From an uncultured bacterium (lineage in GTDB: Bacteria > Planctomycetota > UBA1135 > GCA-002686595), in the NCBI GenBank assembly GCA_943787795.1, contig CALSNU010000001.1, positions 352,001 to 416,000 of the forward strand: a stretch of 64,000 bases of DNA, read 5' to 3'. This document shows, in pieces, positions 8,085 to 26,916 of this stretch. The position numbers and the translations under genes are program-made. Below the pieces are notes generated by a model. That model was given only the letters and a program-made list of their open reading frames with translations. It was not told the origin of the DNA and made no database searches. Numbering within the stretch: position 1 is the first letter of the stretch; each line of letters starts with the position of its first letter.

Positions 8085-8181
8085 GCAGCGCTCCCGGCGG
8101 GGTCCTCGACCCGGCCTGGGCGGGCGACCTCAGCGGGTCGTACCGGGTCCTGGCCCTCTCCGTTCCCCCGGGGTACCTCAA

Positions 8182-10062
8182 ATGCTCGCGCTCCTCTCGG
8201 CTCCCACCCTCCTCGGGTTCCCCGCCTTCCTGGGACTCCCCGCTCCTTTCGAGGCCGGGCACCCAGCGGCGAGCCCAGCAGCCTGCGCTTCGCAGGACGG
8301 GACCTCGATCCGGGCGGTGGTGACGTCTCCGGGGGGAGGCGCCGGCCTCGCGGCGAGCCTCAGGGCCGCCGGACTGGAGGTGCTGGGACGGTCGCCGCTG
8401 GATCGCGGAGGGGTGGAGGTCATCGTGACCCCCACGGAGCGTCGCTGGCTCGGGCTGCGCGGGCTCGATCTCGAGGTGCTGGAAGTGGGCCGCCCCTTTG
8501 CGGAGGTCATGGCCGAGCGGGCGGCGGCTGACGGAGTCCCCTCCGGCTACCTCGACTATCCCGCCGTCGTGGCAGAGCTCGCGGCCCTGGCGGCGAGTCA
8601 ACCTCAGCTCGCCGAGCTGGTGGACATCACGGCGCGCTATGGAACTCCTGCCACGGAAGAGGGGCGCCACCTCTACGCGCTGAAGATCTCGGACAACGTG
8701 GCGTCGGATGAGGATGAGCCCGCGTTCCTCCTCGTCTCGGCCCACCACGCCCGCGAGCTCGTCACCCCGGTCATCGCCCTTGACGCTGCAGCCAGGCTCC
8801 TCAGTGGCTATGGCACCGACCCCGAGGTGCGCGACGCGGTGGACGGCCATGAGATCTGGATCGCTCCGGTCTGGAATCCAGACGGCTACCAGCACGTCTT
8901 CACGGCGGACAACCTCTGGCGGAAGAACCGCCGACCCTTCTCCAGCGGGACGGGGGTCGACCTCAACCGCAACTATCCCGCGGGCTGGGCGTCGGGTTGC
9001 TCGGGCAGCACGAGTCCAGGGTCGGGCACCTTCAAGGGCCCCGCCGCGGCGTCGGAGGCCGAGACAGCGACGATGCTGGCGTGGACCGCAGACCGGCGCT
9101 TCGCGAAGGTGCTCGACCTCCACTCCCGGGGGAGGGAGACGCTCTGGGGATACGCCTGTCCGTCCTCGCCGGTGGACAGCCTGTGGCGATCCAAGGCGAT
9201 CGAACTGAGCCAGGCGGCGGGCTACGGCGCCACCGAGCGGCCTCCCAGCGCGGACGGTGAGCACTTCCAATGGCAGTTCGCGGCGCACGGCGCCATGTCG
9301 CTCCTGACAGAGACCCATGACCAGTTCCAGCCGTCGTACGCCTCGGCGGTCGCCGAGGCCGCGGCGGTCTGGGGCGGAGTGCTCTGGTTCCTCGGCGAGC
9401 CGCTGCCGCTCACGGGGCAGATCACAGACGCCTGCTCGGGCCATCCCCTGGAGGCGACCCTCACGGTTCAGGGGCTCGGATTCACCGAGGGCGAGGTGAT
9501 CCGCTCCTCGGCCGCGGCAGGCCGCTTCCACGGCTTCCTGCCGAGTGGGACTCACTCGTGCCTTGTCGAGGCGCCGGGCTTTCTCCCGGCCACCGTCTCG
9601 GTCCAGGTCCCCTCGATGGGGGGGGCGACGCTGGACGTTCAGTTGGACCCGGTGGGCGGGGGAGCTGTGAACTTCTGTCCGGCCACCCCGAACAGCCTCG
9701 GGCAGGTCCCGCTGCACTATCTCTCGGGGAGCGCCAGCGTCGGGCAGAATCAGTTCACGCTGTTCGTCGAGCGGCTCCCCGGGCTCCAGCCCCTGGTCTT
9801 CATGGCGGGGCAGAGCTTCATCCAGGCACCCTGCTTCAATGGTGTCCTGTGTCTCGGGCGCCCGAGCTATCCCCTCTCCCTTGGCGTTGCCGACATCTTC
9901 GGTACCGCCTCGGTGGTGGTGGACCTCTCCGCGCCGATCCACGCTCAGGTGATGTTCCTCGCGGGCTCCACATGGGGCTTCCAGGTCGCGTACCGCGACC
10001 CTCAGGCCGGCGGTGTTGGGCTCAACCTCAGCCCTGCGCTGCAGGTCCAGATCTGCCCCTGA
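8182..10062 (+). CDS. Secreted M14 zinc carboxypeptidase (carboxypeptidase T-like) with beta-sandwich domain and shared C-terminal domain
   Basis: HHARE (HxxE), NPDG, WRKNR, GVDLNRNY, DLHS motifs; GQITDA...VEAPGF regulatory-like domain. Confidence 0.9.
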   Translation: MLALLSAPTLLGFPAFLGLPAPFEAGHPAASPAACASQDGTSIRAVVTSPGGGAGLAASLRAAGLEVLGRSPLDRGGVEVIVTPTERRWLGLRGLDLEVLEVGRPFAEVMAERAAADGVPSGYLDYPAVVAELAALAASQPQLAELVDITARYGTPATEEGRHLYALKISDNVASDEDEPAFLLVSAHHARELVTPVIALDAAARLLSGYGTDPEVRDAVDGHEIWIAPVWNPDGYQHVFTADNLWRKNRRPFSSGTGVDLNRNYPAGWASGCSGSTSPGSGTFKGPAAASEAETATMLAWTADRRFAKVLDLHSRGRETLWGYACPSSPVDSLWRSKAIELSQAAGYGATERPPSADGEHFQWQFAAHGAMSLLTETHDQFQPSYASAVAEAAAVWGGVLWFLGEPLPLTGQITDACSGHPLEATLTVQGLGFTEGEVIRSSAAAGRFHGFLPSGTHSCLVEAPGFLPATVSVQVPSMGGATLDVQLDPVGGGAVNFCPATPNSLGQVPLHYLSGSASVGQNQFTLFVERLPGLQPLVFMAGQSFIQAPCFNGVLCLGRPSYPLSLGVADIFGTASVVVDLSAPIHAQVMFLAGSTWGFQVAYRDPQAGGVGLNLSPALQVQICP

Positions 10063-10078
10063 ACGCCCAGGGGCCGGG

Positions 10079-10170
10079 GCCCCCAACGGGGCCCCGTTGG
10101 GGGCTCTGTTGGGGGCTCTGTTGAGGCCCCTGTGGAGGCTCTGCCGGAACTCTGCCGGAACTCTGCCGGG
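10079..10170. repeat. Perfect 26-bp palindrome followed by 12-bp and 11-bp tandem repeats; probable terminator region
   Basis: GCCCCCAACGGGG|CCCCGTTGGGGGC at 10079-10104; GTTGGGGGCTCT x~4; CTCTGCCGGAA x3. Confidence 0.75.
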
Positions 10171-10496
10171 GAGGCGCCGATGGGGGGCAGCCCCCCAGCC
10201 ACTCCCCCGAACAGAGGCCAATTAGGTGTTCCGCGGCCTCCGCCCGCCGGGCGCTGGGGAGGGCCTCAGGTGAGGCGAGAGCACCACTGGGGGGGGTAAA
10301 GCCCCGGTCGCCGGCAGGATTGTAGAGAACTGGTATGGTCGATCTGTGCCGCAGAATAAGACGTCCTTGCGTCCTGCGATGAAGCGGCCCGACGCTCCCG
10401 TCACGGCTCCAGCCAGTTCGGGGGCGACGCTGAGCGCACCCTGAATGCGTTCAACCTCGTCGCTGTTTGTTCCTTCCTTGAACCACTTTCCTTCCC

Positions 10497-12809
10497 ATGA
10501 CTTTCCGAATCCTCTTGTCTACGGCCACGGCCATGGCTCTTGTCGCCAGCGCCGGAGCGCAGGTGAATCAGTACGTCGGGCCCTCGGCGAATGCACCGTC
10601 GGGCAACCTCGACTTCGACACCCCCCCCGTTCCGTCCGGGCCGATCTCTGGCACCGACCCTGCGTTCACGAGCGCAGGCGTCACCTCAGTGACACAGATC
10701 GGTCTCGGGTGGGTTGCCGCTGGCGACACCACGTCCCCGGGCATCTCGAACAACGCTCTCCAGGGGCTCCTGTCCCAGAACGGCGTCATGTCGGTCGGCG
10801 GTGACACCGCCGGCACGCCCCTCGACAACCCCGGCGCCGGCGACGGCTGGGAGATCACGCTCGCCGCTCCGGTGCTGGAGTTCCAGTGCATCTTCACCGA
10901 CCAGGTGAACATGAACTACGACGTGGAGCTCCTCTCCGGCGGAGCCTCGATCGGCTTCGGGTCGTTCAACTACTCCGGTGGCTTCCCGAACCCGCCGCAC
11001 TTCTGGCGGGGCACCGGGGCCTTTGACACGATCCGCATCACCTTCCCCGGTGGGTCGGGCGGTGTCGGTATCGACGAGTGGTCCTGGAACAGCGGACCCG
11101 GCCCGCAGCCGCCGGCCAACGACGACTGCGCGAACGCGACGCCTGCAGCGGTGGGCTCGAACGCTTTCAACAACCTGTTCGCGACCGCGAGCACGGCCGG
11201 CTCGAGCTGCGGTGCTGATGCCGCGGACGTGTGGTTCTCCTTCACGGTTCCGAGCGCGGGCAACTACCGCTTCGAGACCTGCGGGTCCACGCTCGACACG
11301 GTCCTCGAGGTCTACTCGGGTGCCTGTGGATCGGCGACGTCGCTCGGCTGCAATGATGACGGCTGTGGCGCGCAGAGCCAGCTCGACCTCGTCGGACTGA
11401 GCGCCGGTGACAACCTCCTTATTCAGCTCGGCGGCTTCAACAACGCTCAGGGCGCGGGTTCCCTCGACATTTCGACATTCTCGGCCCTCGGGAACGATGA
11501 CTGCGGCGGGGCCACCCCGGTGGCCTTCGGCGGCAATCTGATCGACAACAACTTCGCGACGACGAGTGCCACGCTCTCCGGCTGTGGCGCCGACCAGTCC
11601 GACGTCTGGTACTCCTTCACGGTCGCGACGGCCGGGGACTACCGGTTCGAGACCTGCGGTTCGCTGTTTGACACCGTCATCGAGGTCTACACCGGGACCT
11701 GCGGCGCGCTTGTCTCCCAGGGGTGCAACGATGACGTCTGCGGCACGGGTAGCCGTGTGGACGTGCTCGGTTTGAACGCTGGCGAGGTCGTCCTTCTGCA
11801 GGTCGGCGGATTCGGTGGAGCCCAGGGCACGGGTACGCTCACGATCGGCAACCCGCCGCCCCCGCCCCCCGCCAACTGCGCGACGACGCTCTTCGCGTCG
11901 AACAACGGTGGTGCGATCGGCGGCGCCGTGTACTTCGACATGACGCTGACCCAGGCCTCGTCCTTCGCCGGCCTGCTCACCAACACGAGCGCGGCCTCCG
12001 GAACGCCGATTGGTGTGTCCGTCTACACCTGTGTCGGCTCCTCCGCGGGCCAGGAGACGAACCCCGGGGCCTGGACCCTGGTGGCAGAGGATGACGGTTC
12101 GCCGATCAGCTTGGGGGATGACGTCGAGACCCCGGTGACCTTCGTGGCACCGTTCTCGCTTCCCGCGGGCCTCACGGGCATCGCTGTCGTGGGTGACAAC
12201 TTCACCACCGGCCTTCAGATGGACCACGACTACACCAACGGCAACGGCGCGAACCAGAACTTCGTGAGCGCCGATGGCGTGGTGACCCTGGACCTCGGGA
12301 CGGCGTCGAACGTGCCGTTCACTGGCGGGGTCTTCAGTCCCCGGGTGTGGAACGGGCAGTTCTGCCACGGTGGCGCTGTGGCGCCGGGCTCGAACTACTG
12401 CACGGCGAACGTCAACTCGACGGGCGTCGCGGGATCCATGGGCGCGTCGGGCTCCAACATCGTGGGCAACAACGACCTCGTGCTGGAGGCGAACGACCTC
12501 CCGGTGAGCTCGTTCGGCTTCTTCCTGACCTCGATGACCCAGGGCTTCGTTGCGAACCCCGGGGGCAGCCAGGGCAACCTCTGCCTCGGCGGCGCCATCG
12601 GGCGCTACGTCGGGCCGGGCCAGATTCAGAACTCCGGTTCTGCTGGCTCGATCGTCCTCGCCATCGACAACACCCAGGTGCCGCAGCCCACGGGCCTCGT
12701 GGCCGTCGTCACGGGTGAGACCTGGAACTTCCAGGCCTGGCACCGGGACGCCGTCATGGGCTCGGCGACGAGCAACTTCACCGACGGGTACGAGATCACC
12801 TTCCAGTGA
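10497..12809 (+). CDS. Large secreted multidomain protein with two Cys-rich PPC-like repeats and shared C-terminal domain
   Basis: Sec signal peptide (..ASAGA|Q); two ~125 aa repeats 'NDDC..ATP...DVW.SFTV..AG.YRFETCGS..DTV.EVY.G.CG...CNDD.CG'; Gly/Asn/Thr-rich. Confidence 0.88.
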   Translation: MTFRILLSTATAMALVASAGAQVNQYVGPSANAPSGNLDFDTPPVPSGPISGTDPAFTSAGVTSVTQIGLGWVAAGDTTSPGISNNALQGLLSQNGVMSVGGDTAGTPLDNPGAGDGWEITLAAPVLEFQCIFTDQVNMNYDVELLSGGASIGFGSFNYSGGFPNPPHFWRGTGAFDTIRITFPGGSGGVGIDEWSWNSGPGPQPPANDDCANATPAAVGSNAFNNLFATASTAGSSCGADAADVWFSFTVPSAGNYRFETCGSTLDTVLEVYSGACGSATSLGCNDDGCGAQSQLDLVGLSAGDNLLIQLGGFNNAQGAGSLDISTFSALGNDDCGGATPVAFGGNLIDNNFATTSATLSGCGADQSDVWYSFTVATAGDYRFETCGSLFDTVIEVYTGTCGALVSQGCNDDVCGTGSRVDVLGLNAGEVVLLQVGGFGGAQGTGTLTIGNPPPPPPANCATTLFASNNGGAIGGAVYFDMTLTQASSFAGLLTNTSAASGTPIGVSVYTCVGSSAGQETNPGAWTLVAEDDGSPISLGDDVETPVTFVAPFSLPAGLTGIAVVGDNFTTGLQMDHDYTNGNGANQNFVSADGVVTLDLGTASNVPFTGGVFSPRVWNGQFCHGGAVAPGSNYCTANVNSTGVAGSMGASGSNIVGNNDLVLEANDLPVSSFGFFLTSMTQGFVANPGGSQGNLCLGGAIGRYVGPGQIQNSGSAGSIVLAIDNTQVPQPTGLVAVVTGETWNFQAWHRDAVMGSATSNFTDGYEITFQ

Positions 12810-12924
12810 TCCCCGCCCCGGGCGCCTCGGCGCCTGATGCTCGCCCCCGCCCTATCCCCAGAGGATGGAGCGGGGGCGACCTTCGTTGGGGGCAGCTCGA
12901 GGGACCGGGAGAGGTCCAGCTGTA

Positions 12925-12984
12925 GCTGCTCTGGAGGGGGCTGCTCTGGAGGGCGTTGCCTCGGAAGGGGCTGCCCTGGAAGGC
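12925..12984. repeat. 15-bp degenerate tandem repeat x4 (GCTGCTCTGGAGGGG)
   Basis: Lies between convergent gene ends. Confidence 0.7.
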
Positions 12985-13089
12985 CCCGCGGCTCACTCGG
13001 TGGGAGGGGGCAACGCAGCGTCCCGAGGCGGCGTCCCGGCGCGGACTGTGTTCAGAACCGGGGTCTTGGGTTCATCGCGGTGCGCAGGC

Positions 13090-13761
13090 TCAGCGTTGGT
13101 CCTTGGGCGCTGGCGCTTCAAGCTCCGTGGCCGTGCTCGAGCGCGGCACGTCCGAGGGGGGAGGAGCCGTTCCCAGGAGCCGGTCGAGCAGCGGGTGGGT
13201 GACGCCGAACCAGTACCGCTCGTTCTTGAAGTGGTGCCAGAGGTGCTGGCGCTTCATGGATCGGCCCCAGGAGGTCCTCGGGCGATAGGGGACATGGGCG
13301 GCGAAGTGGGCGAGCTCGTAGGCCCCGAAGGCCAGACTGAAGCCCAACAGGGTGGGGAGCACCCCGGAGGGTCCCCCGATCGCGGCTCCCGCGGCGGCCG
13401 CCAGCAGGTGGAGGGCGAGCGCGCCCCACAGTGGCACCGTGAGGTTTGTGAAGTCCGTGGGGGCCTCGTGGTGCCGCCAGTGGAGGCGGTAGTGAAGGGC
13501 ACGCAGGCGGGCTCCCTTCGGCACCGGCATGTGCAGCAGCCAGCGGTGGAGGACGACCTCGAGAGTGAACCAGAGCAGCGCCCCGGCGCCGGCCATGGAG
13601 AGGAAATCCCACGGGGACAGGTCGATGACGGAGTCGGAGGCTCCTACGAGGGACGCCACGATCCCGATCAGGATGAGCGCCCACACCCTCACCTCCGGTA
13701 GGCGGGATGCTCTGGCGAGCAGCGTCGCCACGGTCCAACTTCCGGCGTGCTGCACGCTCAC
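13090..13761 (-). CDS. Sterol desaturase / fatty acid hydroxylase family membrane protein
   Basis: His boxes HRWLLH, HWRHH, HFAAH, HLWHH; FGVT..DRLLGT tail. Confidence 0.9.
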   Translation of the reverse strand: MSVQHAGSWTVATLLARASRLPEVRVWALILIGIVASLVGASDSVIDLSPWDFLSMAGAGALLWFTLEVVLHRWLLHMPVPKGARLRALHYRLHWRHHEAPTDFTNLTVPLWGALALHLLAAAAGAAIGGPSGVLPTLLGFSLAFGAYELAHFAAHVPYRPRTSWGRSMKRQHLWHHFKNERYWFGVTHPLLDRLLGTAPPPSDVPRSSTATELEAPAPKDQR

Positions 13762-13876
13762 CGGCCTGGGGTCATGGACGCCACGCTCATCGAGTCAGCG
13801 GTCACGCCTCATTGGGTGGGAGAAGGCCATGTTCATGAGTCCAGTGCTCAAGGGGTCGGCGCCGCGTGCGGCCAAG

Positions 13877-14569
13877 TCACAGGTCGAGGCCGAAGTTGGT
13901 CCAGACGGCGTCGAAGTGCCGCTGGACCTCCGCCCTCGAGCCGAAGTAGACAGGGTAATCCGATACGAGGCGGTGGCCCGCGCACCCGTTCGTCCCCTCG
14001 TTGGAGAAGAGGTGATTCCAGGTGTTCACGTGGAGGACTGGGCGCCCATCCTCGAGGTCGAAGCGCTCCCAGGGGATGGTCGCCGAGAAGTGGCGGGCGA
14101 GGAGGACATTCCAGCGCTGGTCGCCGCTGTAGGTGCCTGGGAAGCGGATCGCCGCGGGAGCGTCCTGCCGGACGGGGTCGAGTTCGATCACCAGGGTCTC
14201 CACGTCAGCGATCCGGCGATAGCCCGAGCGGCCCCTTGAACGGCGGAGGAACGGAAACGTCCTGGACGGCTCCACGAGGCCGAACCAGCGCTGGGCGTCG
14301 TAGAGCTGGTCCACGCCAGGGATGGGGTGGTCCTCGTCCGCGGTCACCACGTGCAGCTCCGCCGCAGCCGAGCCCTTCAGATCCACGAAGACCGCGAGGA
14401 TCGGGCAGTCGTCGTCCGCCGTCGGGACCCGGAAGACGGGGAGCGGGAAGGGCAAGCTCCCGGTGTCGGCCCGGGCGCAGGACCGGGCAAAGTCCGGGCT
14501 GGGACAGCTCACCGGAGGTCCGAAGGCCAGGAAGGCGATCAGGAGAAGGGCGTGGTGGGGGAGGAGCAC
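13877..14569 (-). CDS. Hypothetical exported protein
   Basis: Hydrophobic N-terminus after GTG 14569; plausible globular sequence (DEDHP, GRPVLHVNTWNHLF); start uncertain. Confidence 0.6.
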   Translation of the reverse strand: MLLPHHALLLIAFLAFGPPVSCPSPDFARSCARADTGSLPFPLPVFRVPTADDDCPILAVFVDLKGSAAAELHVVTADEDHPIPGVDQLYDAQRWFGLVEPSRTFPFLRRSRGRSGYRRIADVETLVIELDPVRQDAPAAIRFPGTYSGDQRWNVLLARHFSATIPWERFDLEDGRPVLHVNTWNHLFSNEGTNGCAGHRLVSDYPVYFGSRAEVQRHFDAVWTNFGLDL

Positions 14570-14839
14570 GTTGAGGGAGCCTTGAGAGGTCAAGCTACCA
14601 ACCGGTGCTCTTGGCAGTGCGCTTCCTCCCAGGACGCCGCGCAATTCGAGGCTCCCCCTTCAGGTCCATCGCCAGGAGAGCCGAACCCTCAGGGGCCGGC
14701 CCAGGGCGGGTCCAGAATTGAGGCCCTCAGGGAATACACTCATGAAATTTGGGCGACCGCGACTTGCAAGCAGCGGTTCCGGGTATGCTCTAGGACCTCG
14801 CACCTTTCATTTCTGCCGCGAGTGTTCCCTTTCACTGCC

Positions 14840-15118: not shown

Positions 15119-15142
15119 TCCAACCGAGCACCCGTCGGCCTG

Positions 15143-16069: not shown

Positions 16070-16304
16070 TCGCCTCTGCTACTACGGCTCGGACGCGGGC
16101 GGGGACCGTGCCCACCTTCGATACGCTCCGACGAGCGGCGCGGGCGTCCACGGCGAGCGGCGCCCGGAGCTCCACAGCATGTTAGCTTTGAATCTGCCAC
16201 CGGGGATCTCATCCGCGCCCTTGAGTCCCGACCCGAAACACTGATGCCAGTTTGGCCACCGAAGGCCAACGCTCGACGCGCGTGCGACCGCACGACCCAC
16301 TGCC

Positions 16305-18761
16305 ATGACGAACCAAGACGTTCAGGCCTCCAGCTTCGACGCCCCCGGAGATTCCGGCGGTGATGGACAGTTCGGAGAGTCGGACCTCTCCCTCCGCGGC
16401 CTCTTTGTCACCGCCTGGAGGGGGCGGTGGATCCTGCTCATCGCGACGGGGCTTGGGCTCGCCGCCGGCATCAAGCAGGTTGAGAAGGCGGTTGACGTCT
16501 GGAGAGCTCAGGCCACCGTGGTGATCTTGAACGGGAACCGGTCCTCGGAATACGTGGATGGGTTCATCGGAGGCGAGAGCGCGTTCATGAACACTCAGGC
16601 GCAGGTGCTGAAGTCGACCAGCCTCCTCCAGGCGGTCGCAGCACGCCCAGAGGTTGCCTTGGGCGCAACGGTGAGTCGTGCCAGCAACAAGGTGGCATTC
16701 CTTCGCAAGGGGGTCTCGGTGAACCCGGGGACCGGCACCGACATCATGACCGTCTCCATGCGCTCAACGGATGTGGACGAGGCCTGCGTCGTGGTCAACA
16801 CGGTGGTGGAGGAGTACCGGCTGCAGGTCGATCGCCAGGTCGCGTCATCAATCAGCGGCACGCTCAAGGTCTACGAGGAGCAGCGTACGATCCTGATGTC
16901 GGACCTCAAGCAGGCGCGCCTCGAGCGGGATGAGTTCCTCGCGGCCAATTCGATGGTGGCGCTGGACCCGGAGAGCGTGGGGCAGTTCGAGATCGAGCGG
17001 CTCAATCAATTCAGGACTGCGCTAGATGTCGCCGAGCGGAGAGCCTCGGAGCTGGCTGCCCGGGTCGAGGAGGCGGAGCTCTTGCGCGGAGACCTCCAAC
17101 TGCTTCGTGCCTTCGCCGGCGGCGGCTCGGGCGCCACCTCGGGGGCTCCCGTCGAGCCAGAGTTCGTGAAGCTCCTTGAGGATATTGGCGCAGCAGAGGC
17201 GGACTTGGAGCGCCTGAGGGATCAGCGACGTGAGGCCATTCGGGTCATGAAGATGACGCCCAGGCATGAGGCGATCGTCGAACTGGACGGACGCATCGCT
17301 GAGGTCGCGGAGCGCCTGGCCCGGTATGTCGGCGAGAGGGACGGGTCGACCTCCTCTTCGGTCAACAGCAGTGAGCGTGTCGAGAAGATCTTTGGTGTTC
17401 TGCGGGCGCAGGCGAAGGCGGCAGAGGAACAGGTCGTTGAGGAGCAGAGGCGGGTGGATGCTCAGCGCTCGGTGGCTGCGACGGCCGGCGACCTGCAGGC
17501 AGAGTTCCGCAAGCTAGAGGGTGAGGTTCAGCGGGTCCAAGGGATGGTGGATGAGAAGTCCCAGGCGATCCGCAGCATCGATGTCGCGGCGGCACAGAAC
17601 GAGCGGCTCGCAGAGCTCTCCGTGGAGGTACTCGATCCAGCTCTGCCCGCCACCGCGACGCTAATCAGCTCCAAGACCACGCTGCTGGCCCAATATATTC
17701 TCCTAGGCCTGCTGGCTGGCGCCGGCCTGACGTGGCTGCGAGAGGTCCTGGACCAGCGTTTGCGCTCCGAGGCCGACCTCGCCCAGGCGGTCCGTGCGCC
17801 GCTTCTCGGGGTCCTCCCGAGGACCCGGATCGACCATGATTCCCTGGACGCGATCCGCTCCTGGTCCGAGCACGGGCCGCTCGCCGAGGGCGCCCGCGGC
17901 CTCCGGACAGCGGTCTACTTCCGGCTGCCCCCGGAGGCGGGCAAGGTGATTCATGTCACCTCGCCGGAGAAGGGGGACGGCAAGTCCACCACGTCGGCGT
18001 ACCTGGCCATCGCCATGGCCAAGGCTGGACAGTCGGTCATTCTGGTGGACGCAGACCTCCGCTCGCCCAGTCAGCAGCAAGTGTTCGGGCTCAGCAACAA
18101 GGTGGGGCTCTCGGATCTGCTCTCTGACGCCCGAGCGCTCCTCCCTGGCCTGATCCAGAAGACCGAGCTGGGGGGGCTGGAGATCATCACGACGGGGCCG
18201 ATCCCCTCTTCGCCTGCGGAGATGCTCAACAGCCGCCGTTTCGAGGAGATCCTCGCGGCCCTGGCGGAGGAGTACGACCGGGTCATCGTGGACTCGCCGC
18301 CGGCGCTGGCAGTGACGGACGCCAGGATCGTCGCCGCACGTTGTGACGCCACGGTCCTCGTGGCTCGGGTGGACAAGTCGAAGCGTGACGTCATCTCCGC
18401 GGCGGCTGACAGCCTCCAGTCCGTCGGAGCCCGCCTGCTTGGCGTGGTGATGAATGCGATGCCCGCGGGCATCGGCTACGGCTACGGCTACGGCTACGGC
18501 TACGGCTACGGCTACGGATATGGTTATGGGTACGGAGAGGAGGCACAACCAAGCGCCGAGCAGCCCCTCCAGGCGTGGCAGGCCTCGGATGGAGCGGGGA
18601 GGTTCGTGAGCGGCCTCGCATCAGAGGGCCGGAAGGGCGGCTCCCCAGCGGACGACGCCACCGATTCCGGGCCGACCGAAGAGGGCAAGCCGGATGGGCC
18701 CCGAAGGGTTGACGTTGCCCCCTCGACCCGGCGTCGAGGATCGAAGGGCGGACCGTCATGA
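16305..18761 (+). CDS. wzc: Polysaccharide co-polymerase / tyrosine autokinase (Wzc-like)
   Basis: Two TM segments around a periplasmic coiled coil; Walker A SPEKGDGKST, A' VDADLR, B VIVDSPP; C-terminal Tyr cluster. Confidence 0.92.
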   Translation: MTNQDVQASSFDAPGDSGGDGQFGESDLSLRGLFVTAWRGRWILLIATGLGLAAGIKQVEKAVDVWRAQATVVILNGNRSSEYVDGFIGGESAFMNTQAQVLKSTSLLQAVAARPEVALGATVSRASNKVAFLRKGVSVNPGTGTDIMTVSMRSTDVDEACVVVNTVVEEYRLQVDRQVASSISGTLKVYEEQRTILMSDLKQARLERDEFLAANSMVALDPESVGQFEIERLNQFRTALDVAERRASELAARVEEAELLRGDLQLLRAFAGGGSGATSGAPVEPEFVKLLEDIGAAEADLERLRDQRREAIRVMKMTPRHEAIVELDGRIAEVAERLARYVGERDGSTSSSVNSSERVEKIFGVLRAQAKAAEEQVVEEQRRVDAQRSVAATAGDLQAEFRKLEGEVQRVQGMVDEKSQAIRSIDVAAAQNERLAELSVEVLDPALPATATLISSKTTLLAQYILLGLLAGAGLTWLREVLDQRLRSEADLAQAVRAPLLGVLPRTRIDHDSLDAIRSWSEHGPLAEGARGLRTAVYFRLPPEAGKVIHVTSPEKGDGKSTTSAYLAIAMAKAGQSVILVDADLRSPSQQQVFGLSNKVGLSDLLSDARALLPGLIQKTELGGLEIITTGPIPSSPAEMLNSRRFEEILAALAEEYDRVIVDSPPALAVTDARIVAARCDATVLVARVDKSKRDVISAAADSLQSVGARLLGVVMNAMPAGIGYGYGYGYGYGYGYGYGYGYGEEAQPSAEQPLQAWQASDGAGRFVSGLASEGRKGGSPADDATDSGPTEEGKPDGPRRVDVAPSTRRRGSKGGPS
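18474..18533 (+). repeat. (GGCTAC)7 plus 3 synonymous units encoding (Gly-Tyr)10
   Basis: Read directly from the sequence. Confidence 0.95.
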
Positions 18762-18837
18762 TCTCTCCCCGAGCGATGTGTTCCCGCTGACACGCCTCCC
18801 CCTCCGCTGAACCACCCGCAGCTGCCTCCTGCCAATC

Positions 18838-20343
18838 ATGTCGCTCTTCCTTGCCCTCCCGGTCTTCGCCTTCATCGCGGCGCTCCTGTTGACGCCGGTG
18901 ACGAGTCTGGTCGCGCGTCGGTACGGCTGGGTCGATCATCCGGGGTTGAGGAAAATCCACCATGAACCGGTGGCGTACCTCGGTGGAGCCGCGGTCATGG
19001 GGGGCTTTCTCTTGACGCTGGCCGCAGCGCCCTGGCTACCGGGCCTCGACCGTCTCGAGATCACGGTGGACCGTCAGCTGCTCGCGATCCTCCTCGGTGG
19101 CCTGATCATGTTCGCGGTCGGCCTGCGGGACGACATCCAGCGCCTCGGCGCTTTGACGAAGCTCGCGGCTCAGTTGGCGGCAGCGGGCCTCGTGCTCCTC
19201 AGCGGCGTCTCCATCGACGGGATCTGGCTCACCGAGTCGACGCGTCTGGACTTCGGGGTGTTCGGCATGGCGCTGACGGTGGTCTGGATCGTGGGGGCCA
19301 CCAACGCCATCAACATTATCGATGGGCTGGACAGCCTCTCGAGCGGCCTTAGCGTCCTCGCCTGCGCCGCCATCTCGTGGGTCGCCTTCCAGCAGGGGCA
19401 GGTCGCGGCCGGGCTCATGACCGTGGCCCTGATGGGGGCAATTGGCGGGTTCATGCCCCACAACCTCCATCCCGCCCGGGTCTTCCTTGGAGACGCCGGG
19501 AGCCTCTCCATCGGGTTTGTCTTGTCGGCAACAGCGGCGCTCGTTGCCTCCAGGGCGACGAGCCTTACGGGCTTCTCCGTCCCGCTCGTGGCACTCGGGA
19601 TTCCGATCATGGATACGAGCTTTGCCATGTCCCGGCGCTTCATCGAAGGGCGCTCGATGATGTCGGCTGACCGCAATCACATTCACCACCGGCTGATCAA
19701 GATCGGGCACGGGCAGCGCAGGGCGGTGGCGACCATCTGCGGCACCTCCCTCCTCGCGATCTCCGTCGTTGTCCTATGTCCGCTCCTTGGGCCCGAGCTG
19801 GAACTGGCTTCGCTCGCGGTCTCCCTCCTGATCCTGGGAGTCTTGTTCAGTAAGGCTGGGGCAATCAGGATCAAGGAGTCGCTGGAGGCGTTCCGCCAGG
19901 TCGCGTCGTCGGCGAGGTCCGTCAATGACGAGAAGCAGGCTCTGGACGAGCTGGCGCTCGCCTTCAAGGAGACGAAGTCTCTCGAGGAGTGGTGGGGCGT
20001 GGTGACCGCGGCGGCTGACGTGCTCGGCTTCGCAGAGCTGGCCATGGAGGGGGAGCGCCGCGACGGAAGTCCTTTCGCGCTCCTCTGGGAGCGGGAGGGC
20101 GAGGACATCGAGTCTGCCCCTCAGGGATTTGTGACGAGGATCCAGATCCCGGTCAATGATCGACGCGAAGGGTCTTGTCTGGTTCTCAAGGCTGCGGTCT
20201 CCCATGACTCGGAGACGGCGACGCTGGGTCGAAGGCTCGCGCTCTTCCACCCCTTCCTCTCGTTCAATGGGCTGGAGCGTCTGCCAGAACCAGAGGGCCC
20301 GGCCAGGTCCGCGGGTCCTGCTCCGAGCTTGGCGAGCCGCTAG
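18838..20343 (+). CDS. wecA: Undecaprenyl-phosphate GlcNAc-1-phosphate transferase (WecA/MraY family) with C-terminal extension
   Basis: RKIH..P..LGG, GLRDD, NAINIIDGLD, FLGDAGS, ADRNHIHH. Confidence 0.9.
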   Translation: MSLFLALPVFAFIAALLLTPVTSLVARRYGWVDHPGLRKIHHEPVAYLGGAAVMGGFLLTLAAAPWLPGLDRLEITVDRQLLAILLGGLIMFAVGLRDDIQRLGALTKLAAQLAAAGLVLLSGVSIDGIWLTESTRLDFGVFGMALTVVWIVGATNAINIIDGLDSLSSGLSVLACAAISWVAFQQGQVAAGLMTVALMGAIGGFMPHNLHPARVFLGDAGSLSIGFVLSATAALVASRATSLTGFSVPLVALGIPIMDTSFAMSRRFIEGRSMMSADRNHIHHRLIKIGHGQRRAVATICGTSLLAISVVVLCPLLGPELELASLAVSLLILGVLFSKAGAIRIKESLEAFRQVASSARSVNDEKQALDELALAFKETKSLEEWWGVVTAAADVLGFAELAMEGERRDGSPFALLWEREGEDIESAPQGFVTRIQIPVNDRREGSCLVLKAAVSHDSETATLGRRLALFHPFLSFNGLERLPEPEGPARSAGPAPSLASR

Positions 20344-20880
20344 GCTTGGTTTAGAGGGGCGGTCCGAAGAATGGTGCGGCTCGAAGTGGGGTGTTTGGGT
20401 CAAGCTGATGGAAGGCGAGATCGGCGTCTGGGGAGTGGTACACCCCCGGAGGCGCGAGCCTGCGCCCCGACGGGGGCGCTCTCATTTCGCTGGCGCCGGC
20501 GAATGAAGAGTCACGGCCCTGGCGGGCACGATGCTCCGACCCCAGAGCAGCCATCGGCTGCGCTGCCTTCCATGTGGACCGTTCCATGCGGGCTCAGAAG
20601 GTCTGGAATGCAGCTGCAGCACTCGTCCTCGAGCTCCATGTTTCGTTCAGCAGTCCCGAAGGGGCTCCGTCGGCCTTCGAGGTCGGGCCGGATGGGGATG
20701 GACCAGGATTCTGAACGCCTTTGGGTGACCATCGGCGGCGGCAGCGCGGACGCCGCATTCCTAGGACGCTTCGTTGCGGCAAGCGAACGGAGCAGACCAA
20801 CCGTCCTCACACCTGACCGTCGATGCGGGCCCCTTCCAATGGCCCGAGTCGAGACCCAGGACGCTCGACCAGGATGGCGG

Positions 20881-21957
20881 TCAGCGGTTGTTGACCCCAG
20901 GCGTGAAGAAGTAACCGATCTGGAGCGTGAAGACCTCTGACGCGAACTTCCGCGTCCAGGTCCCTGCGGTGTGGCCGAGCGAGATCACATCACCGGGCTT
21001 GATGGGGATCGTGATCGCGGTGCGAAGCGCTTCGCCCTTGATCTCGAACGTCGAGGCCAGGATCTCGCCAGTCTCATAATCCTTGCGGAAGATCGTCGCG
21101 TAGGGAGGGGCGGCTACGGGGTCAGGCCCGCCGGCCACCGCGATGGCTTCCAGGAGGTTCAGTTCCTGTTCGGGGGGTATTGGGAAGGCGCCCTGGCCTG
21201 CGACAAGGCCGAGCACGGTGAAGCTGAACGGCTCCCAGCGCTCCACCTCGATACGCTCGCCGCCTTCCAGGGGCATGTCATAGAAAGGGACGTTGAGGCC
21301 TCGGACGGGGAGGCCGACCACCTCCGGCCCGTCGCCTCGGCCTGGACGGTAGACGGTAATTCGCCGGGCGCCGCCGCCTTCGCCCACCAAGATGCCGCCT
21401 GCCGCAGAGAGCGCCGCGGAGAGCGTCAGCTCGTCGCTTCGCAGCCGATGGACGCCCGCGCTACCCACCGCCCCGTATATCGTGATCGAGCTCAGGGTCG
21501 CCTCCTGGACAGAGACCACGATGGACGGGCGTTCGCTCAGGAGCTCGGGGTAGACCTTGTCGGCGATCCGGGCCTCGACCTCCTGGACGGAGAGCCCGGC
21601 GACTTGGGTGGTCCCGGCGAGAGGGACCTCGATGGAGCCTTCCTTCGAGACGCGGGCGAAGTGCTCGAGGCTGGTCTGCGGCAGACCCTCCACGACAGAG
21701 GTGGCCATGGACGGCGGCACCCGGATTACCAGCAGGTCGCCGGGGACCACCGTGTAGACACCCGGGGGCTGAATGGAGTCAATGAGTCTCTGCTCGTCGA
21801 ATTCCGGCTGGATCGGGCCCGCCGCGTTGAACCGCGCGAGGCCCTCGGCGTCGGGGTGGTAGCGGGGTGCACTACACGACGCACCGGCGAGTGCCGTGAC
21901 GATGGCGAGGCATATCGGGATCGATCGACGGTTGCTGGAGCGGGGCAGGGTGCTCAT
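20881..21957 (-). CDS. wza: Polysaccharide export lipoprotein (Wza-like; Poly_export + SLBB domains)
   Basis: Lipobox-like AGASC; 'YTVVPGDLL...GSIEVPLAG..QVAGLS'; SLBB repeats 'AAGG', 'VAGG', 'IKPGDVI'. Confidence 0.85.
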   Translation of the reverse strand: MSTLPRSSNRRSIPICLAIVTALAGASCSAPRYHPDAEGLARFNAAGPIQPEFDEQRLIDSIQPPGVYTVVPGDLLVIRVPPSMATSVVEGLPQTSLEHFARVSKEGSIEVPLAGTTQVAGLSVQEVEARIADKVYPELLSERPSIVVSVQEATLSSITIYGAVGSAGVHRLRSDELTLSAALSAAGGILVGEGGGARRITVYRPGRGDGPEVVGLPVRGLNVPFYDMPLEGGERIEVERWEPFSFTVLGLVAGQGAFPIPPEQELNLLEAIAVAGGPDPVAAPPYATIFRKDYETGEILASTFEIKGEALRTAITIPIKPGDVISLGHTAGTWTRKFASEVFTLQIGYFFTPGVNNR

Positions 21958-22027
21958 GGGTTCACTCTATCGATTGAAGGCGCGGGCTACAGAGCTGTAA
22001 TTCAGGACGGGCGGGGCAGCTCTCCGC

Positions 22028-24526
22028 TCATCTCGCCCCGTCGGACTCGAGTTGCTCGAGGAGGCGGCTTGCGGCGGTCATCCCGGGGTGGAAGTTGAGG
22101 AGGTCCTTGAGCTCTCGCCGGGCGCCACGGGGGTCTCCCATCTGGACGAGGAGCCTCGCGTAGCTGAGCCGAGTCTTGGACGAGGGATCCAGGCCCAGGA
22201 CCCGGCGGAGCAGCGCGGCAGCCTCCTCGAGGTTGTCGCGAGACGCCTCGATAGCGGCGAGGCGCTGCAGGTCGCTGGCGGCAGCGCTCGGGCGGGCGCA
22301 GGCGGCGACGAGGAGCTCCTCGTAGGCTTCCTGCAGCCGCACTTTGAGCTCGCCGCGCGCCTCGTCGCCTTCGACCACGGCGAGCAGGCGGTCGGTGAGG
22401 ACCAGGTTGCCCTCGACGAATGGGAGGGCCAGCTCGGGCCGGTCCAGGCTGACGGCGAGCAGGTCCACGGCGGAGCTCGCGCCAGCTCCGATGCTCACGG
22501 CCCGTTCGATCTCGGCGACGCCCTCGGCTTCACGGTTCTTCCGCATGAGCTCGAAGGCCGACGCGAGGCACGTCTTGGGATGGTGGGGGGCCAGCTCGCG
22601 CCCACGGATGATCCACTCACCGGCCTCGTCGCTCTGATCGTCCAGCCAGACGCGGCGCAGCTGGCCTGCGACGGACCACGAGGGTCCATGGGTCGGAGCG
22701 ACGAGGAGAAGCTCCTTGAGCTCCTCGAGCATGATGCGTGCCTTTCCGGCCAGTGCCGGGTGGTCGAGGGGATTCACCGGCGGCCCCTCGGGGTCGAAGC
22801 TGCCGGCCTCAGCGACGGCTTGGTTCCAGCCCGCGAGGGCGGATTGGAACCGGTACTCAGCGTTGCCGGGCTCGCCCTCGACCGCGAGTGCGGCGTGTAG
22901 CACGAGGTCTGCGTGCTGCTCGGCGGTGCCAATCCCGCCGCTCTGTTCCATCTCATGCCGGAGCCGCTCCGTGTACGAGAAGTGGTCCCATGCGCTGGTC
23001 TCCCGGGCTGCTCCCGGGACACTCGCCGCGAGGCACACGAGGGCCACGGCGGCCGATCCCAGAGCGTAAAGTCGCCGCGGCAGGCTGGCCGAGGCGCTCT
23101 GCCCAGAGCAGGCCAGGGCAGCGCCAGCGAGCGTCGCGGCAGTGAGGCCGACCGCCGGGATCAAGAGGCCGAAGTCGGTCAACGAATGGAACCCCAACGC
23201 GGAGAGCCCGAACAAGACCCCGAAGACCCCCAGCGCGCTCCGGTTGGACCGGGCTCCCCGAAGGATCGCCAGGGTGAGCAGGCCGAGGAAGGCGAAGCCG
23301 AGCAGGGCACCGGTCAGACCCATCTCGGCGAAGAGTTCGGCGTAGATATTCTCGGCGTGCTCTGCGGTGCCTCGGCGGACGGCTGAATCGAACCCAGGGA
23401 AGGCCAGCGCGAAGGCCCCGAGCCCCGCCCCGGTTGCAGCGAAGGCTGCGCCCATGCTCGCAGAGTCGCGGATCAGCTCGAGTCGAGTGGTCATGTTGCT
23501 CCCCTCGTCAGCGTTCACGGCCTCGAACTTCTCGATGACCGGGTCGACCCCGAGGAACAGAAGCATGGCCGTGGCGGCGAGGCCGGCGGCGGCCATGGAC
23601 CAGCCCACGCCGTCGATCCTCCTGGAGTACTGCATGACCCCCGCTGTGACCGAGGCCGCGAAGACCATGGACATGAGGCCGTTGCGGGACGTCGACAGGA
23701 CGATGGCGACGGTGCCCAGCACGAGGAACAGTCGCAGGGTCTTCTCGCTCCTCGACGCGCGGCGCCCTGGGCCCCCGGTGAGGTCCCGGACGTCCACGGG
23801 GCGGCCCCGTGCGCGCCCGCCAGCTTCGATGAGCAGACACCCGAGGGCGCACCCCAATGCGAGGTTCAAGAACTCGGCGTAGTGGCTGTATGAGGCGAAG
23901 GGCGCGCTCAGGGTCGCGAAGCCTCCGCCGTCGAAGACTCCGTAGATGAGGGGCTCTCCCAGCGCGAAGTGCCCGAGGCCTACGAGGGTCACGACGGATC
24001 CGATCAAGGAGACACCCAGGATGAGCCTCCTGAAGGCCGCGGGATGGCGATAGATCGTCGAGGACACCAGCAGGAGCAGCGCGCCCATGATCAAGAGGTC
24101 CACGCGGATTCCCGTCCCGTTGGGGTAGACGCTCAGCGTCATGGAAGCCGGTTCGGTGCCCGCGGCCTTGTTGGCCTCCGCCCAGGCCTGGCCCGCCGCC
24201 GGGGAGACTTGTTGGACCAGTGCAGCAGGGAGCTCGATGATCTGGGCCAGGGCGAGGGCGACCAGCCCGAAGAAGGGCAGCAACGCCCGAGGCGTACAGA
24301 CCGCCTGGTCGGTCTCGGAGAGGCAGCGAACGGCGAAGCAGGCGCCGATCAGGGCTCCCATGCAGCCCATGACGACCCGGCTCATCGGCATGACACCGCC
24401 GAAGGCGAGCGGCAGGTAGAGGAGCAGGCCGAGGATCAGCGCCTCGATGACCTGGTCGATCCTCGGCGCCGGTGCGGGCTTGCTGCCACGGCGCTGGGCG
24501 GTTGCGTGGTCAGGACGCGGTGTCAT
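22028..24526 (-). CDS. O-antigen ligase / O-oligosaccharyltransferase-family membrane protein with C-terminal TPRs
   Basis: About 12 TM segments; LSTSRNG, GAGLGAF, EHAENIYAELFAEMG, HSLTDF; TPR-like C-terminus. Confidence 0.85.
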   Translation of the reverse strand: MTPRPDHATAQRRGSKPAPAPRIDQVIEALILGLLLYLPLAFGGVMPMSRVVMGCMGALIGACFAVRCLSETDQAVCTPRALLPFFGLVALALAQIIELPAALVQQVSPAAGQAWAEANKAAGTEPASMTLSVYPNGTGIRVDLLIMGALLLLVSSTIYRHPAAFRRLILGVSLIGSVVTLVGLGHFALGEPLIYGVFDGGGFATLSAPFASYSHYAEFLNLALGCALGCLLIEAGGRARGRPVDVRDLTGGPGRRASRSEKTLRLFLVLGTVAIVLSTSRNGLMSMVFAASVTAGVMQYSRRIDGVGWSMAAAGLAATAMLLFLGVDPVIEKFEAVNADEGSNMTTRLELIRDSASMGAAFAATGAGLGAFALAFPGFDSAVRRGTAEHAENIYAELFAEMGLTGALLGFAFLGLLTLAILRGARSNRSALGVFGVLFGLSALGFHSLTDFGLLIPAVGLTAATLAGAALACSGQSASASLPRRLYALGSAAVALVCLAASVPGAARETSAWDHFSYTERLRHEMEQSGGIGTAEQHADLVLHAALAVEGEPGNAEYRFQSALAGWNQAVAEAGSFDPEGPPVNPLDHPALAGKARIMLEELKELLLVAPTHGPSWSVAGQLRRVWLDDQSDEAGEWIIRGRELAPHHPKTCLASAFELMRKNREAEGVAEIERAVSIGAGASSAVDLLAVSLDRPELALPFVEGNLVLTDRLLAVVEGDEARGELKVRLQEAYEELLVAACARPSAAASDLQRLAAIEASRDNLEEAAALLRRVLGLDPSSKTRLSYARLLVQMGDPRGARRELKDLLNFHPGMTAASRLLEQLESDGAR

Positions 24527-24852
24527 GGGAGCAGTGGGGAGGCCGGGGTGCGGTGCAGATCACGGGCGCGACGGACTTGAGGCTGGTAGAGCGCAGGTCC
24601 AGCGCAGGGCGCGCGCCCTGCGGTTGGAGTCGATCGGGAGCACACCCCGTCGCCTGTCTATCGGCTCTCGAAGGTTCCGCGCGTGAATCCTATCCGCGTT
24701 CCAGAGGGGGACGATACGGCACCTGGCGCTTCAGCAGAGAGGGGTTCAACTCGCAAGGAAGTCCGATTAGGAAGGAGCGCGCCTCCGGCCATGCCGGGGG
24801 CGCGCTCCTTCCGGTCGCTCTGGCTCACGGGTGAGCCGAACCGGGACTCAAC

Positions 24853-26916
24853 TCACTGGAACGTCACCGACAGGGCGTCGGAGAAGTTGCTGGTACTGCC
24901 GACGTCCCGGAACCAGTACTGGAAGTTGTAGGAGTCACCGGGGAGCACGGCGATGAAGCCCGTCGGCTGCGGCCACATGTTGAGGTCCGTGGGGACAGAC
25001 ACCGTGGTGCCCGAGCCCGTGTTGACCACGTTGGCGATGAACCGGCCTACCGGGCCGCCGCCGATGCAGAGGTTTCCGACCGAGGCGCCCACGTTGGGGA
25101 CGAAGACCGACCCCTGTGAGACGAAGAAGTAACCGCTCGAGTTGTTGGGCAGGCACTCCGCGTTGAGCATGAAGGCGTTGTCCACGACCAGGTCGCTGCC
25201 GGTGCCGAACATGTGGGCGCCGAAGCCAGACGAGTTGAGCACGGCCGAGCAGAAGTTCGATCCGACCTCAGTCGATGCGCCGATGTCGTAGTCCAGCACG
25301 TAGTCGGCGCAGCTCTCGCCGGGCTGGAATGCGAAGGTGGCGACCTTGAGCACGTACGTCTGAGGCTGCCCCGACTTGTTCGTGTAGGTGATGGTCTCGA
25401 CCGCACCGACGGAGAACGAACCGGTGATGAAGCCGGCGTTGGAGTCACAGTTTGCGTCGTCCGTGAACAGGAGCAGGTCGAGGTCCGCCTGGGAGGGGTC
25501 GAGCAGCATCGAGACGTTGATGGTCTCGCCGGGGATCAGGCTGAGCCGGAAGTAGTCCGCCGGCACGAGGCAGTTGACGACCAGATTGATCGTCTGACCC
25601 GTGGATAGCGGGAACGCCGTGGCGCAGGAGACGTTGCCAGCCAGGGGGTCGTCCGGGCACGGCGCGGCAACGGACAACTCGAGGTCGTAGTCACTGCAGT
25701 CGCCAGCGCTTCCCGCGAAGACCGTGACCTCAAGCTTCACCGGGAGCGGGGCTGAGCCGCAGTTCGTGTAGGAGACGGTCTCGTTGTCGGTGACGGAGAA
25801 GCCGAAGTCGTAGGCACCCGTGCAGTCATCGTTGAAGAGGATGATGTCTACGTCGGCCTGGGCCTGGGAGAACAGCGCGTTCGCGGTGAGCGTCATCCCT
25901 GCGGGGATATCGAACGAGTAGTAGTCCGGGTCCGTCTTGGTGACCACGAGTCCAGAGTTGAAGCTCGGAACAGCAAGGGGCGCCGCGGAGTTGCAGTCGT
26001 CGTTGTCCTCGAACACATCGTCGAGGCGGGCCAGGCAGCCTGAGCAATCAAAGCCAAGGTCGGCGCCGAGGACGAGCCAGAAGGAACCGAACGCGGGGTT
26101 GTTCGTGGCCGGGTCATACCCGCCTTCGTTGAAGCACTCGGTGCTCCCGGTGCCCAGGGTGAGCTCGAACCACTGGTCCAGCGTGCCGAGTCCGGAGCCG
26201 ACGCTGCCGGGGTTCTGGAAGACCGTGCCGTCCCCAGTGGGCGCGAGAGGACCGGGACGCGCGCCGATCAGCGGGCCCATCATCGAGCCGGGGTCGGCGG
26301 ACATCAGCAGCCCGAATCCGAACCGATCCACGTCGCCGTCGTCGTACTTGCCGTCCCCGTCTGCAAGCATGCAGAACTCGAAGCCGGTCATGTCGATGTC
26401 GAAGGTGTACGGCGTGATCTGCCCGGGGGTGATCGTTCCAGGGAGTCCGGAGATCGTCAGGTCTAGCAGCGGAGCGGAGCTCCCGAGCGGGTTGGTGCAC
26501 GAGTCGTACTGGGCGAGGATCGTGAGCCTCGCGTTACCGTCACCGATCGAGTCGGTGGCGTAGCCCAGCTGGATGTCGTCGATGCGGTAGCTGTCGGCCG
26601 TTCCCGTGACGCTCACCGGGCTCGAGGAGACCGGGGACGTCGTACTCGGGATCCGGCCCTCGTCGACCACGAGGCTCGAGCCGTTGATGTCGAGGAACAC
26701 CGCACCGTAGTGGTTGTTCGTGTAGACGTCGCCACCGGCACCCATGGCCGACTGTTGAGTCGGATCCGCGGGGATGAACTGTCCCGAGGCCGCGTGGAAT
26801 GTTCCCGCGTGGATCGGAGCCCTGGCAGGAATCCGGTGGAGTTGGGCAGTGGATTGACCGGGCGCGCCCTGGGCGAGGGCGACCGCTCCGATCAGGAGGG
26901 ATGCAGTCTTGAGCAT
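24853..26916 (-). CDS. Large secreted protein with two PPC-like domains and shared C-terminal domain
   Basis: Signal peptide MLKTASLLIGAVALAQG; 'DD.FEDNDDC..A', 'DYY.F', 'D.D..LF' PPC-like repeats. Confidence 0.87.
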   Translation of the reverse strand: MLKTASLLIGAVALAQGAPGQSTAQLHRIPARAPIHAGTFHAASGQFIPADPTQQSAMGAGGDVYTNNHYGAVFLDINGSSLVVDEGRIPSTTSPVSSSPVSVTGTADSYRIDDIQLGYATDSIGDGNARLTILAQYDSCTNPLGSSAPLLDLTISGLPGTITPGQITPYTFDIDMTGFEFCMLADGDGKYDDGDVDRFGFGLLMSADPGSMMGPLIGARPGPLAPTGDGTVFQNPGSVGSGLGTLDQWFELTLGTGSTECFNEGGYDPATNNPAFGSFWLVLGADLGFDCSGCLARLDDVFEDNDDCNSAAPLAVPSFNSGLVVTKTDPDYYSFDIPAGMTLTANALFSQAQADVDIILFNDDCTGAYDFGFSVTDNETVSYTNCGSAPLPVKLEVTVFAGSAGDCSDYDLELSVAAPCPDDPLAGNVSCATAFPLSTGQTINLVVNCLVPADYFRLSLIPGETINVSMLLDPSQADLDLLLFTDDANCDSNAGFITGSFSVGAVETITYTNKSGQPQTYVLKVATFAFQPGESCADYVLDYDIGASTEVGSNFCSAVLNSSGFGAHMFGTGSDLVVDNAFMLNAECLPNNSSGYFFVSQGSVFVPNVGASVGNLCIGGGPVGRFIANVVNTGSGTTVSVPTDLNMWPQPTGFIAVLPGDSYNFQYWFRDVGSTSNFSDALSVTFQ

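Follow-up and report, generated by a model that had tools for sequence, protein, structure and literature searches.

The window analyzed here is a 64,000-nucleotide stretch (C1:352001-416000) of the genome of an uncultured planctomycete, a 4.71-Mb assembly with a GC content of 70% and a completeness of 85%, for which we built our own model of 3,446 genes. It encodes three predicted secreted proteins that end in the same domain of about 125 to 140 residues, hereafter called the tail, in which lysine is almost absent (0.2%). Signal peptides were called with a hydrophobicity heuristic of our own, not with SignalP, and its background is 36%. The three cargo genes and their tails, numbered by position in the window, are as follows.

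8182..10062, forward strand: cargo gene 1, M14 zinc carboxypeptidase of 626 amino acids (aa), predicted secreted (Pfam PF00246, E = 2e-47)
9670..10059, forward strand: tail copy 1, shorter subtype with a Cys-Pro end (hidden Markov model [HMM] score, 105 bits; ends 1 residue before the stop codon)
10497..12809, forward strand: cargo gene 2, 770 aa, predicted secreted (signal peptide by heuristic), tail at its end
12393..12806, forward strand: tail copy 2, main subtype, Cys3 and Cys64 conserved (HMM score, 199 bits)
24853..26916, reverse strand: cargo gene 3, 687 aa, predicted secreted (signal peptide by heuristic), tail at its end
24856..25257, reverse strand: tail copy 3, main subtype (HMM score, 152 bits; terminates at the stop codon)

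Cargo gene 1, whose start most likely lies at 8182, as in a database protein of the same length (P0188; 626 aa, 100%), also encodes a carboxypeptidase-regulatory-like domain (PF13620, E = 2e-7) ahead of its terminal tail. Cargo gene 2 encodes two galactose-binding-like GBD_T9SS_assoc domains (PF23759, E = 1.6e-10, two stretches), and cargo gene 3 encodes two PPC-like domains (PF04151, E = 7.5e-5, under the curated cutoff). An earlier note on this stretch had claimed that the three C termini (9670-10062 and 12393-12809, forward; 25257-24853, reverse) are homologous and sit on different passengers, and both claims are borne out: BLASTP within a three-sequence database aligns the tails pairwise over 126 to 138 residues at 28 to 42% identity (E = 1e-7 to 5e-35), each reaching its stop codon, and the passengers show no mutual relation at an E value of 1e-5. 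Copy 3 is 42% identical to copy 2, and copy 1 is 26 to 33% identical to the other two. The two cysteines that the note had singled out are among the 28 invariant columns of the three-tail alignment, and two of the tails do share a TFQ end and a common PQPTG motif. The final hydrophobic residue that it described is present, only not as the very last, with one or two residues (Q, or CP) coming after it.

An HMM built from these three tails was iterated over the 51,777 six-frame open reading frames (ORFs) of the genome. Its first round detected 103 domains, spread over 102 ORFs, and the iteration converged at 104 core ORFs with one copy each, most of them at E values below 1e-20 and far more than chance would yield; a separate search of the genome returned 102 matches. 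The expectation of many copies, one each on diverse proteins with predicted signal peptides, is thus confirmed; short ORFs or remnants account for some 10 of the 104, at least two of these lying out of frame behind a longer gene. Broader profiles added four divergent copies, and three more scored above reversed-sequence controls, for a total of 111 in the genome, with two further candidates falling within the noise. Carriers make up about 3% of the predicted genes. All but two of the 104 core copies end no more than 2 residues before the stop codon, and the tail is likewise terminal in all but one of the best 150 database relatives and in 86 of 86 copies in relatives' loci; in a set of 150, none has two copies in tandem.

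Identity between tails reaches 75% for unrelated passengers, and the median is 47% for tails on related passengers versus 41% for those on unrelated ones; tail identity therefore hardly tracks passenger kinship, and the tail behaves as a shuffled module. Gly, Pro, and the Gln of the penultimate strand are nearly invariant in the divergent set, and the main subtype additionally conserves Cys3/Cys64, Asn8, Arg71, Arg118, Asp119, and Asn128. Profile comparison joins the core alignment to 26 tails that the core profile leaves undetected (97.3% probability; E = 2.7e-11; 124 columns; 15 shuffled or reversed controls, 0.4% at most), a comparison that is not wholly independent, as 18 of the 26 were gathered with a profile including borderline members. 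The linker before the tail has no conserved cleavage-type sequence, and a disulfide between the terminal Cys-Pro and the domain start received a p value of 0.09, in a test where the window for some rows included the domain's own first Cys.

The strongest functional evidence is the interchange of the tail with other terminal modules. Among the 120 best homologues of the M14 peptidase region of cargo gene 1 (52 to 100% identity), 29 end in this tail, 30 carry FlgD-Ig, and 4 carry a dockerin recognized by Pfam; none has two of these, and the remainder end in other modules or short tails. This exclusive alternation indicates that the tail takes the slot that is filled elsewhere by an export signal or docking module. 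Some of the M14 homologues (P0235, P0255, P0261, P0263, P0277, P0279, P0280, P0292, and P0304-P0306, one of them named Vicinamibacterales) have as their end a short motif, Pro-x-x-Pro-x-Asn/Gly-Leu-Arg-Ile, which may be another sorting signal specific to a lineage.

The placement of the tail is not confined to the C terminus. In one protein of this genome (C6:243720-244538), the signal peptide is followed directly by the tail domain and then by a c-type cytochrome, and six other genomes (seven in total) have loci with the same arrangement, three of them with a PKD-like spacer recognized by eye; a free C terminus is therefore not required. Further nonterminal copies are N terminal in P0143 and internal in L229. 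With such copies, an obligatory, cleaved terminal signal is hard to reconcile, and they are placed as a binding module may sit. The extreme C-terminal position described in the earlier note thus holds for nearly all core copies and fails for these conserved architectures, a type of placement that the earlier note had itself counted against its proposal. The conserved protein composed of signal peptide, tail domain, PKD-like spacer where present, and monoheme cytochrome c (L154:9269-10087, reverse strand; L168-L173), whose cytochrome part has no Pfam match, is a candidate surface electron-transfer protein.

The proteins that bear the tail look exported. A signal peptide is called in 82 of the 97 carriers of at least 250 aa versus 835 of 2,331 other genes, figures that replace those of a first, laxer test (82 of 104, with a background of 45%), and a stricter pattern of AxA followed by Gln after the cleavage site is found in 66 of 97 carriers versus 175 of 2,331 other genes. 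Gln directly behind the predicted signal peptidase site, present in 68% of carriers and 8% of other genes, is reminiscent of the pyroglutamate "Q-rule" of Bacteroidota. Only 2 of the 97 have a lipobox, and a transmembrane (TM) helix beyond residue 45 occurs in 1 of 97 (445 of 2,331 other genes), such that the carriers are without another anchor. Passengers, which are very low in Lys and Arg, are diverse, with 91 of them forming 43 clusters by BLAST. Pfam and NCBIfam scans of 88 of the ca. 100 full-length carriers assign S8, M12, M14, and M43 peptidases, trypsin, GH16, sulfatase, endonuclease I, esterases, Amidase_3, lectins, FG-GAP propellers, and GBD_T9SS_assoc, with about half of the 88 lacking a Pfam match; choice-of-anchor B, L, and Q domains, which from their family names we take to occur with varied anchors, score at or over the NCBIfam cutoff. 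Dehydrogenases are also among the tail-bearing proteins, and two cargos have CxxCH heme motifs. In a ranking of all genes by extracellular-like composition, 32 of the first 39 and 69 of the first 98 are tail bearing; the highest-ranked exceptions include frameshifted genes, porins, lipoproteins, and a few tailless secreted proteins. Four tailless secreted proteins that are kin to cargo (S8, M43, and GBD; L274, L275, and L276) end in other terminal modules, and a profile of these modules found no further members.

An AlphaFold2 model of tail copy 2 (pLDDT confidence score of 97.8; pTM of 0.91) is an all-beta, immunoglobulin (Ig)-like sandwich whose last 10 residues form a beta strand, and a predicted complex of two tail copies scored 0.00, which is uninformative either way. 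In keeping with the view that the tail is no characterized family, neither the three window tails (at E values up to 1) nor 39 divergent tails (up to 0.1) matched Pfam or NCBIfam, and PDB sequence searches returned nothing specific. Fold searches were also unspecific: the rows listed include no isolated C-terminal domain (CTD) of a type IX secretion system (T9SS), cohesin, or pilin, which does not exclude them. Generic Ig/fibronectin type III (Fn3)-like sandwiches (LILR/KIR Ig domains, macroglobulin domains, and neocarzinostatin/macromomycin) appear, of which none stands out and none reaches an E value of 1e-3; they are 4 to 18% identical to the tail, leave its extra hairpins and N-terminal arm unaligned, and offer no function that could be transferred. 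Carbohydrate-binding module (CBM) families give no Pfam match and appear only as tied, fold-level rows. In the ESM Atlas, unnamed Planctomycetota clusters score 0.97 to 0.98, and the nearest named ones are CHRD clusters at 0.79 to 0.83, probably whole proteins carrying the tail. The open-licence literature yielded no description of the domain, though supplementary genome annotation tables could mention it, and the main text of one source (10.1101/817700) has no occurrence of "secret" or "S-layer."

The domain is widespread. Of 604 candidate stretches in GTDB contigs, a scan upheld 575, and the 80 loci listed derive from Planctomycetota metagenome-assembled genomes, records of an "uncultured bacterium," Saltatorellus ferox Poly30, and one record labeled Paracoccaceae. 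This last record (L049, G373) has at least 100 strong copies and is likely a mislabeled or mixed bin. The cultured S. ferox Poly30 has at least 150 copies, as all 150 scored of its 388 candidates pass an E value of 1e-40. A 147-row profile recovers 19,588 representatives of 50%-identity clusters at an E value of 1e-3, and it detects the tail in 19 of 301 Planctomycetota genomes, versus 65 of 301 (5 of them with only one or two matches) for a profile of 16 divergent tails, such that the earlier note's statement on similar tails in deep-branching planctomycetes proved correct. With the latter profile, each of the 17 other genomes of the order is positive, as is every genome sampled from several further families, and there are none in samples of 16, 16, 11, and 11 genomes from four other families. 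Genomes that at first seemed tailless carry divergent tails on M14 and C25 peptidases; loss of the tail in family members such as G196 is thereby rejected, and there is no loss inside the clade that could be used for profiling.

Known systems resemble this arrangement in part. The T9SS CTD (Por_Secre_tail, TIGR04183/PF18962) and FlgD-Ig (PF13860) of the Fibrobacteres-Chlorobi-Bacteroidetes group are likewise single terminal modules on many unrelated Sec-exported proteins, of an Ig-like beta-sandwich fold such as is predicted for the tail, with overlapping cargo families (GBD_T9SS_assoc, choice-of-anchor, C25, and M14), but the tail has ca. 135 aa versus a 72-position model, no profile match, a Lys content of 0.2%, two conserved cysteines in its main subtype, and N-terminal or internal copies. 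The T9SS-like reading suggested earlier is not sustained: PorV (PF19572) was found in none of the 41 carriers searched (84 to 97% complete), with a positive control in Bacteroides thetaiotaomicron, and the nonterminal copies sit in conserved architectures. SprA (TIGR04189) was found in none of five genomes, in a search where the control also gave no match. This genome has one marginal TIGR04183 match and no C25 peptidase; three of four relatives have one, and three of the four C25 proteins examined in relatives carry the tail and so look like cargo. A 1,280-aa BNR/PDZ protein (L261:2693-6532, forward strand) has toward its end one domain of FlgD-Ig or marginal T9SS type, although the search for PorV in that genome found none.

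Dockerin tails (PF00404) of other Planctomycetota are also lineage-wide, single terminal modules on diverse exported proteins, and they replace the tail in 4 of the 120 M14 homologues by Pfam and in more by eye; like them, the tail is probably a noncovalent handle. Dockerins, however, are small helical calcium-loop repeats, whereas the tail models as all beta and has no match to the dockerin motif. PEP-CTERM, GlyGly-CTERM, MYXO-CTERM, and LPXTG are many-to-one C-terminal tags on diverse cargo as well, and the tail lacks their tripartite structure of signature, TM helix, and basic residues, ending instead in an uncharged beta strand, just as the earlier note had maintained in setting it apart from PEP-CTERM and LPXTG. 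Exosortase (PF09721) occurs in two of five carriers and not in this genome. Cargo of GlyGly- and MYXO-CTERM reaches the surface via a type II secretion system (T2SS), according to the available text of 10.1101/2023.06.07.544157. Judged by its sequences, then, the domain is uncatalogued and clade-wide, appears to work like a sorting or anchoring tail, and on the features tested belongs with neither the T9SS, the CTERM tags, nor the dockerins.

Possible export routes in this genome include six secretins: that of a gspD-E-F-G-H-I-J cluster, an orphan secretin by gspK, those of a Tad locus and PilQ, and a twin pair around ExbBD-like genes (Tad and ExbBD-like assignments by eye). All 41 carriers searched have a GspD-like secretin gene, as do 17 of 20 noncarriers; type II export therefore does not appear to depend on the tail, and this distribution is compatible with such export without being specific to it. 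A second pseudopilin cassette (C1:921941-935817; L272:2442-16315, forward strand) encodes an Amuc_1101-like PilM (133 bits, below the cutoff), a TPR protein, GspG/H/J/I-like proteins, and a 1,744-aa GspK-like protein. The gene for the last is detected in 40 of 41 carriers versus 6 of 20 noncarriers (46 of 61 Planctomycetota) and is retained in genomes of 2.4 to 2.9 Mb, a pattern confounded by kinship to the single-protein query. Several unannotated outer-membrane barrels are present. The genome also has several Big_5 lipoproteins of 1,000 to 1,200 aa that lack the tail (L237:566-3577, forward; L253:2906-6409, reverse; L260:2535-6164, forward), one of which is single copy in nine of nine family members searched and, in four or more of them, has the orphan secretin ca. 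6 to 8 kb away. A conserved 1,004-aa lipoprotein considered as a universal partner was not supported, with 11 of 61 genomes positive in a single-protein search.

We put the chance at roughly 0.5 that the tail remains uncleaved and serves as a surface-docking module of proteins whose export likely runs through a T2SS. Sec would carry the cargo over the inner membrane, with signal peptidase I predicted to cut it; folding would take place in the periplasm, where, to judge from the conserved cysteines and the CxxCH motifs, disulfides would form and two cargos would gain c-type heme. The folded cargo would then likely cross the outer membrane by a T2SS, proposed because no other route for folded proteins was found in all of the carriers searched. 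At the surface, the uncleaved tail would likely bind one lineage-wide envelope ligand (candidates are a surface glycan, a glycolipid, or an unrecognized scaffold protein) through its conserved Asn/Arg/Gln/Asp positions, a role such as dockerin tails seem to have in other planctomycetes. The earlier proposal of a targeting or attachment domain of an uncharacterized system survives insofar as the tail fills the slot of known export and anchoring domains; no dedicated translocon or sortase was identified, and surface attachment appears to fit the sequences better than a new secretion machine.

Several observations weigh against a docking module. Glycan-binding anchors are often repeated, whereas export signals are single and terminal, and the ca. 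99% terminal placement and strict single copy of the tail are typical of the latter. The commonest replacement among the M14 homologues is FlgD-Ig (30, versus 4 dockerins by Pfam), which we take to be a T9SS-type export tail, and one cargo belongs to Amidase_3, a family that is usually periplasmic. The signal peptide evidence comes from our own heuristic with its background of 36%. No cohesin (PF00963) was found in five genomes, a search that divergent cohesins would escape; there is no repeated or anchored scaffold family among the 88 tailless proteins of extracellular-like composition; and the conserved 1,004-aa lipoprotein was detected only in the family and two other genomes. As to the route, GspC, GspL, and GspM were not identified in the genome, and GspD and GspE score just below the NCBIfam cutoffs.

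In the main rival explanation, which we regard as rather unlikely, the tail would be a portable recognition label for the T2SS. The folded domain would be recognized in the periplasm, perhaps by a pseudopilus tip that belongs to the second cassette with its 1,744-aa GspK-like subunit, and the cargo would then be released or displayed. Single copy number, terminal bias, coverage of most extracellular-like proteins, interchange with FlgD-Ig, and the need of heme-bearing cargo to leave folded would all suit such a label, which could function at either end of a protein, as would the GspD-like gene in 41 of 41 carriers and the giant GspK-like gene in 40 of 41 versus 6 of 20, retained even in the 2.4- to 2.9-Mb genomes. 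But a T2SS is also found in 17 of 20 noncarriers, the GspK pattern shares the confounding noted above, the Amuc_1101-like PilM of the cassette points to a pilus or uptake role, and at least four extracellular-type proteins are without the tail; moreover, we know of no universal T2SS signal domain. That other sorted proteins require the T2SS to reach the surface (available text of 10.1101/2023.06.07.544157) is in its favor, and docking module and type II label are not mutually exclusive. A wider proposition, doubtful at present, is that most exported proteins in this whole branch of the Planctomycetota are addressed by a single folded label that works at any position and is recognized by an undescribed machine dedicated to export and display; that machine might be a T2SS tipped by a giant GspK-like subunit or else a new translocon.

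The remaining alternatives concern what the tail would do elsewhere. That it is a substrate- or particle-binding accessory domain of the CBM type, by which released enzymes and adhesins stick to an external surface such as an algal polymer, is unlikely: the same domain sits on proteases, nuclease, lectins, dehydrogenases, and cytochromes alike, is never in tandem (0 of 150), spans ca. 60 genomes of many families, and matches no CBM family. We find it distinctly improbable that an outer-membrane translocon and a sortase, both undescribed and together a functional equivalent of the T9SS made from unrelated parts, use the tail as a C-terminal signal that is cleaved; the tail's architecture and fold class do parallel the T9SS CTD, which is cleaved by PorU (both from the available text of PMC4804311), and mature N termini that often begin with Gln, clade-restricted presence, and several unannotated outer-membrane barrels agree with it, yet the N-terminal and internal copies, the lack of a conserved cleavage-type linker, the failure to find PorV in 41 carriers, and C25 peptidases that are missing from this genome and look like cargo in three of four cases examined in relatives all speak against it. 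Least probable is retention of the cargo inside the envelope, for example, by binding of the tail to peptidoglycan or to the inner face of the outer membrane, with the cargo acting in the periplasm. The sequence predicts Sec export only, Amidase_3 and cytochrome c cargo are usually periplasmic, and periplasmic digestion has been suggested for planctomycetes, as far as the available text of PMC11131199 goes; most of the cargo, however, resembles adhesins, lectins, and polymer hydrolases in type and contains very little Lys and Arg, and homologues elsewhere bear outer-membrane export tails.

Between cargo genes 2 and 3, the window holds a polysaccharide export locus (16305-24526) with a Wzc-like kinase bearing a Gly-Tyr repeat cluster, a GT4 initiating transferase, a Wza-like export protein, and an O-antigen ligase-TPR fusion; nothing was found that ties this locus to the tail. 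Long antisense ORFs over cargo genes 1 and 2 (8059-10221 and 10686-12743, both reverse strand) are probably a by-product of high-GC codon use.

New here are the clade-wide divergent superfamily, the quantified interchange of tails, the N-terminal cytochrome fusion, and the 41-genome comparison of PorV, GspD, and GspK. A domain family present in 19,588 clusters at 50% identity is covered by no Pfam or NCBIfam model, and it delimits what is likely the surface proteome of planctomycetes from a shape-shifting group that is little known but includes a cultured carrier. If the tail is a docking handle, evolution would have given planctomycetes a second system for assembling surface enzymes, one that does not use dockerins. 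Should the tail instead be a label read by an export machine, it would be a portable tag by which folded proteins containing heme and disulfides reach the surface of diderm cells, and if that machine is a T2SS, how type II systems select their folded substrates, a question long open, would become testable with one small domain.

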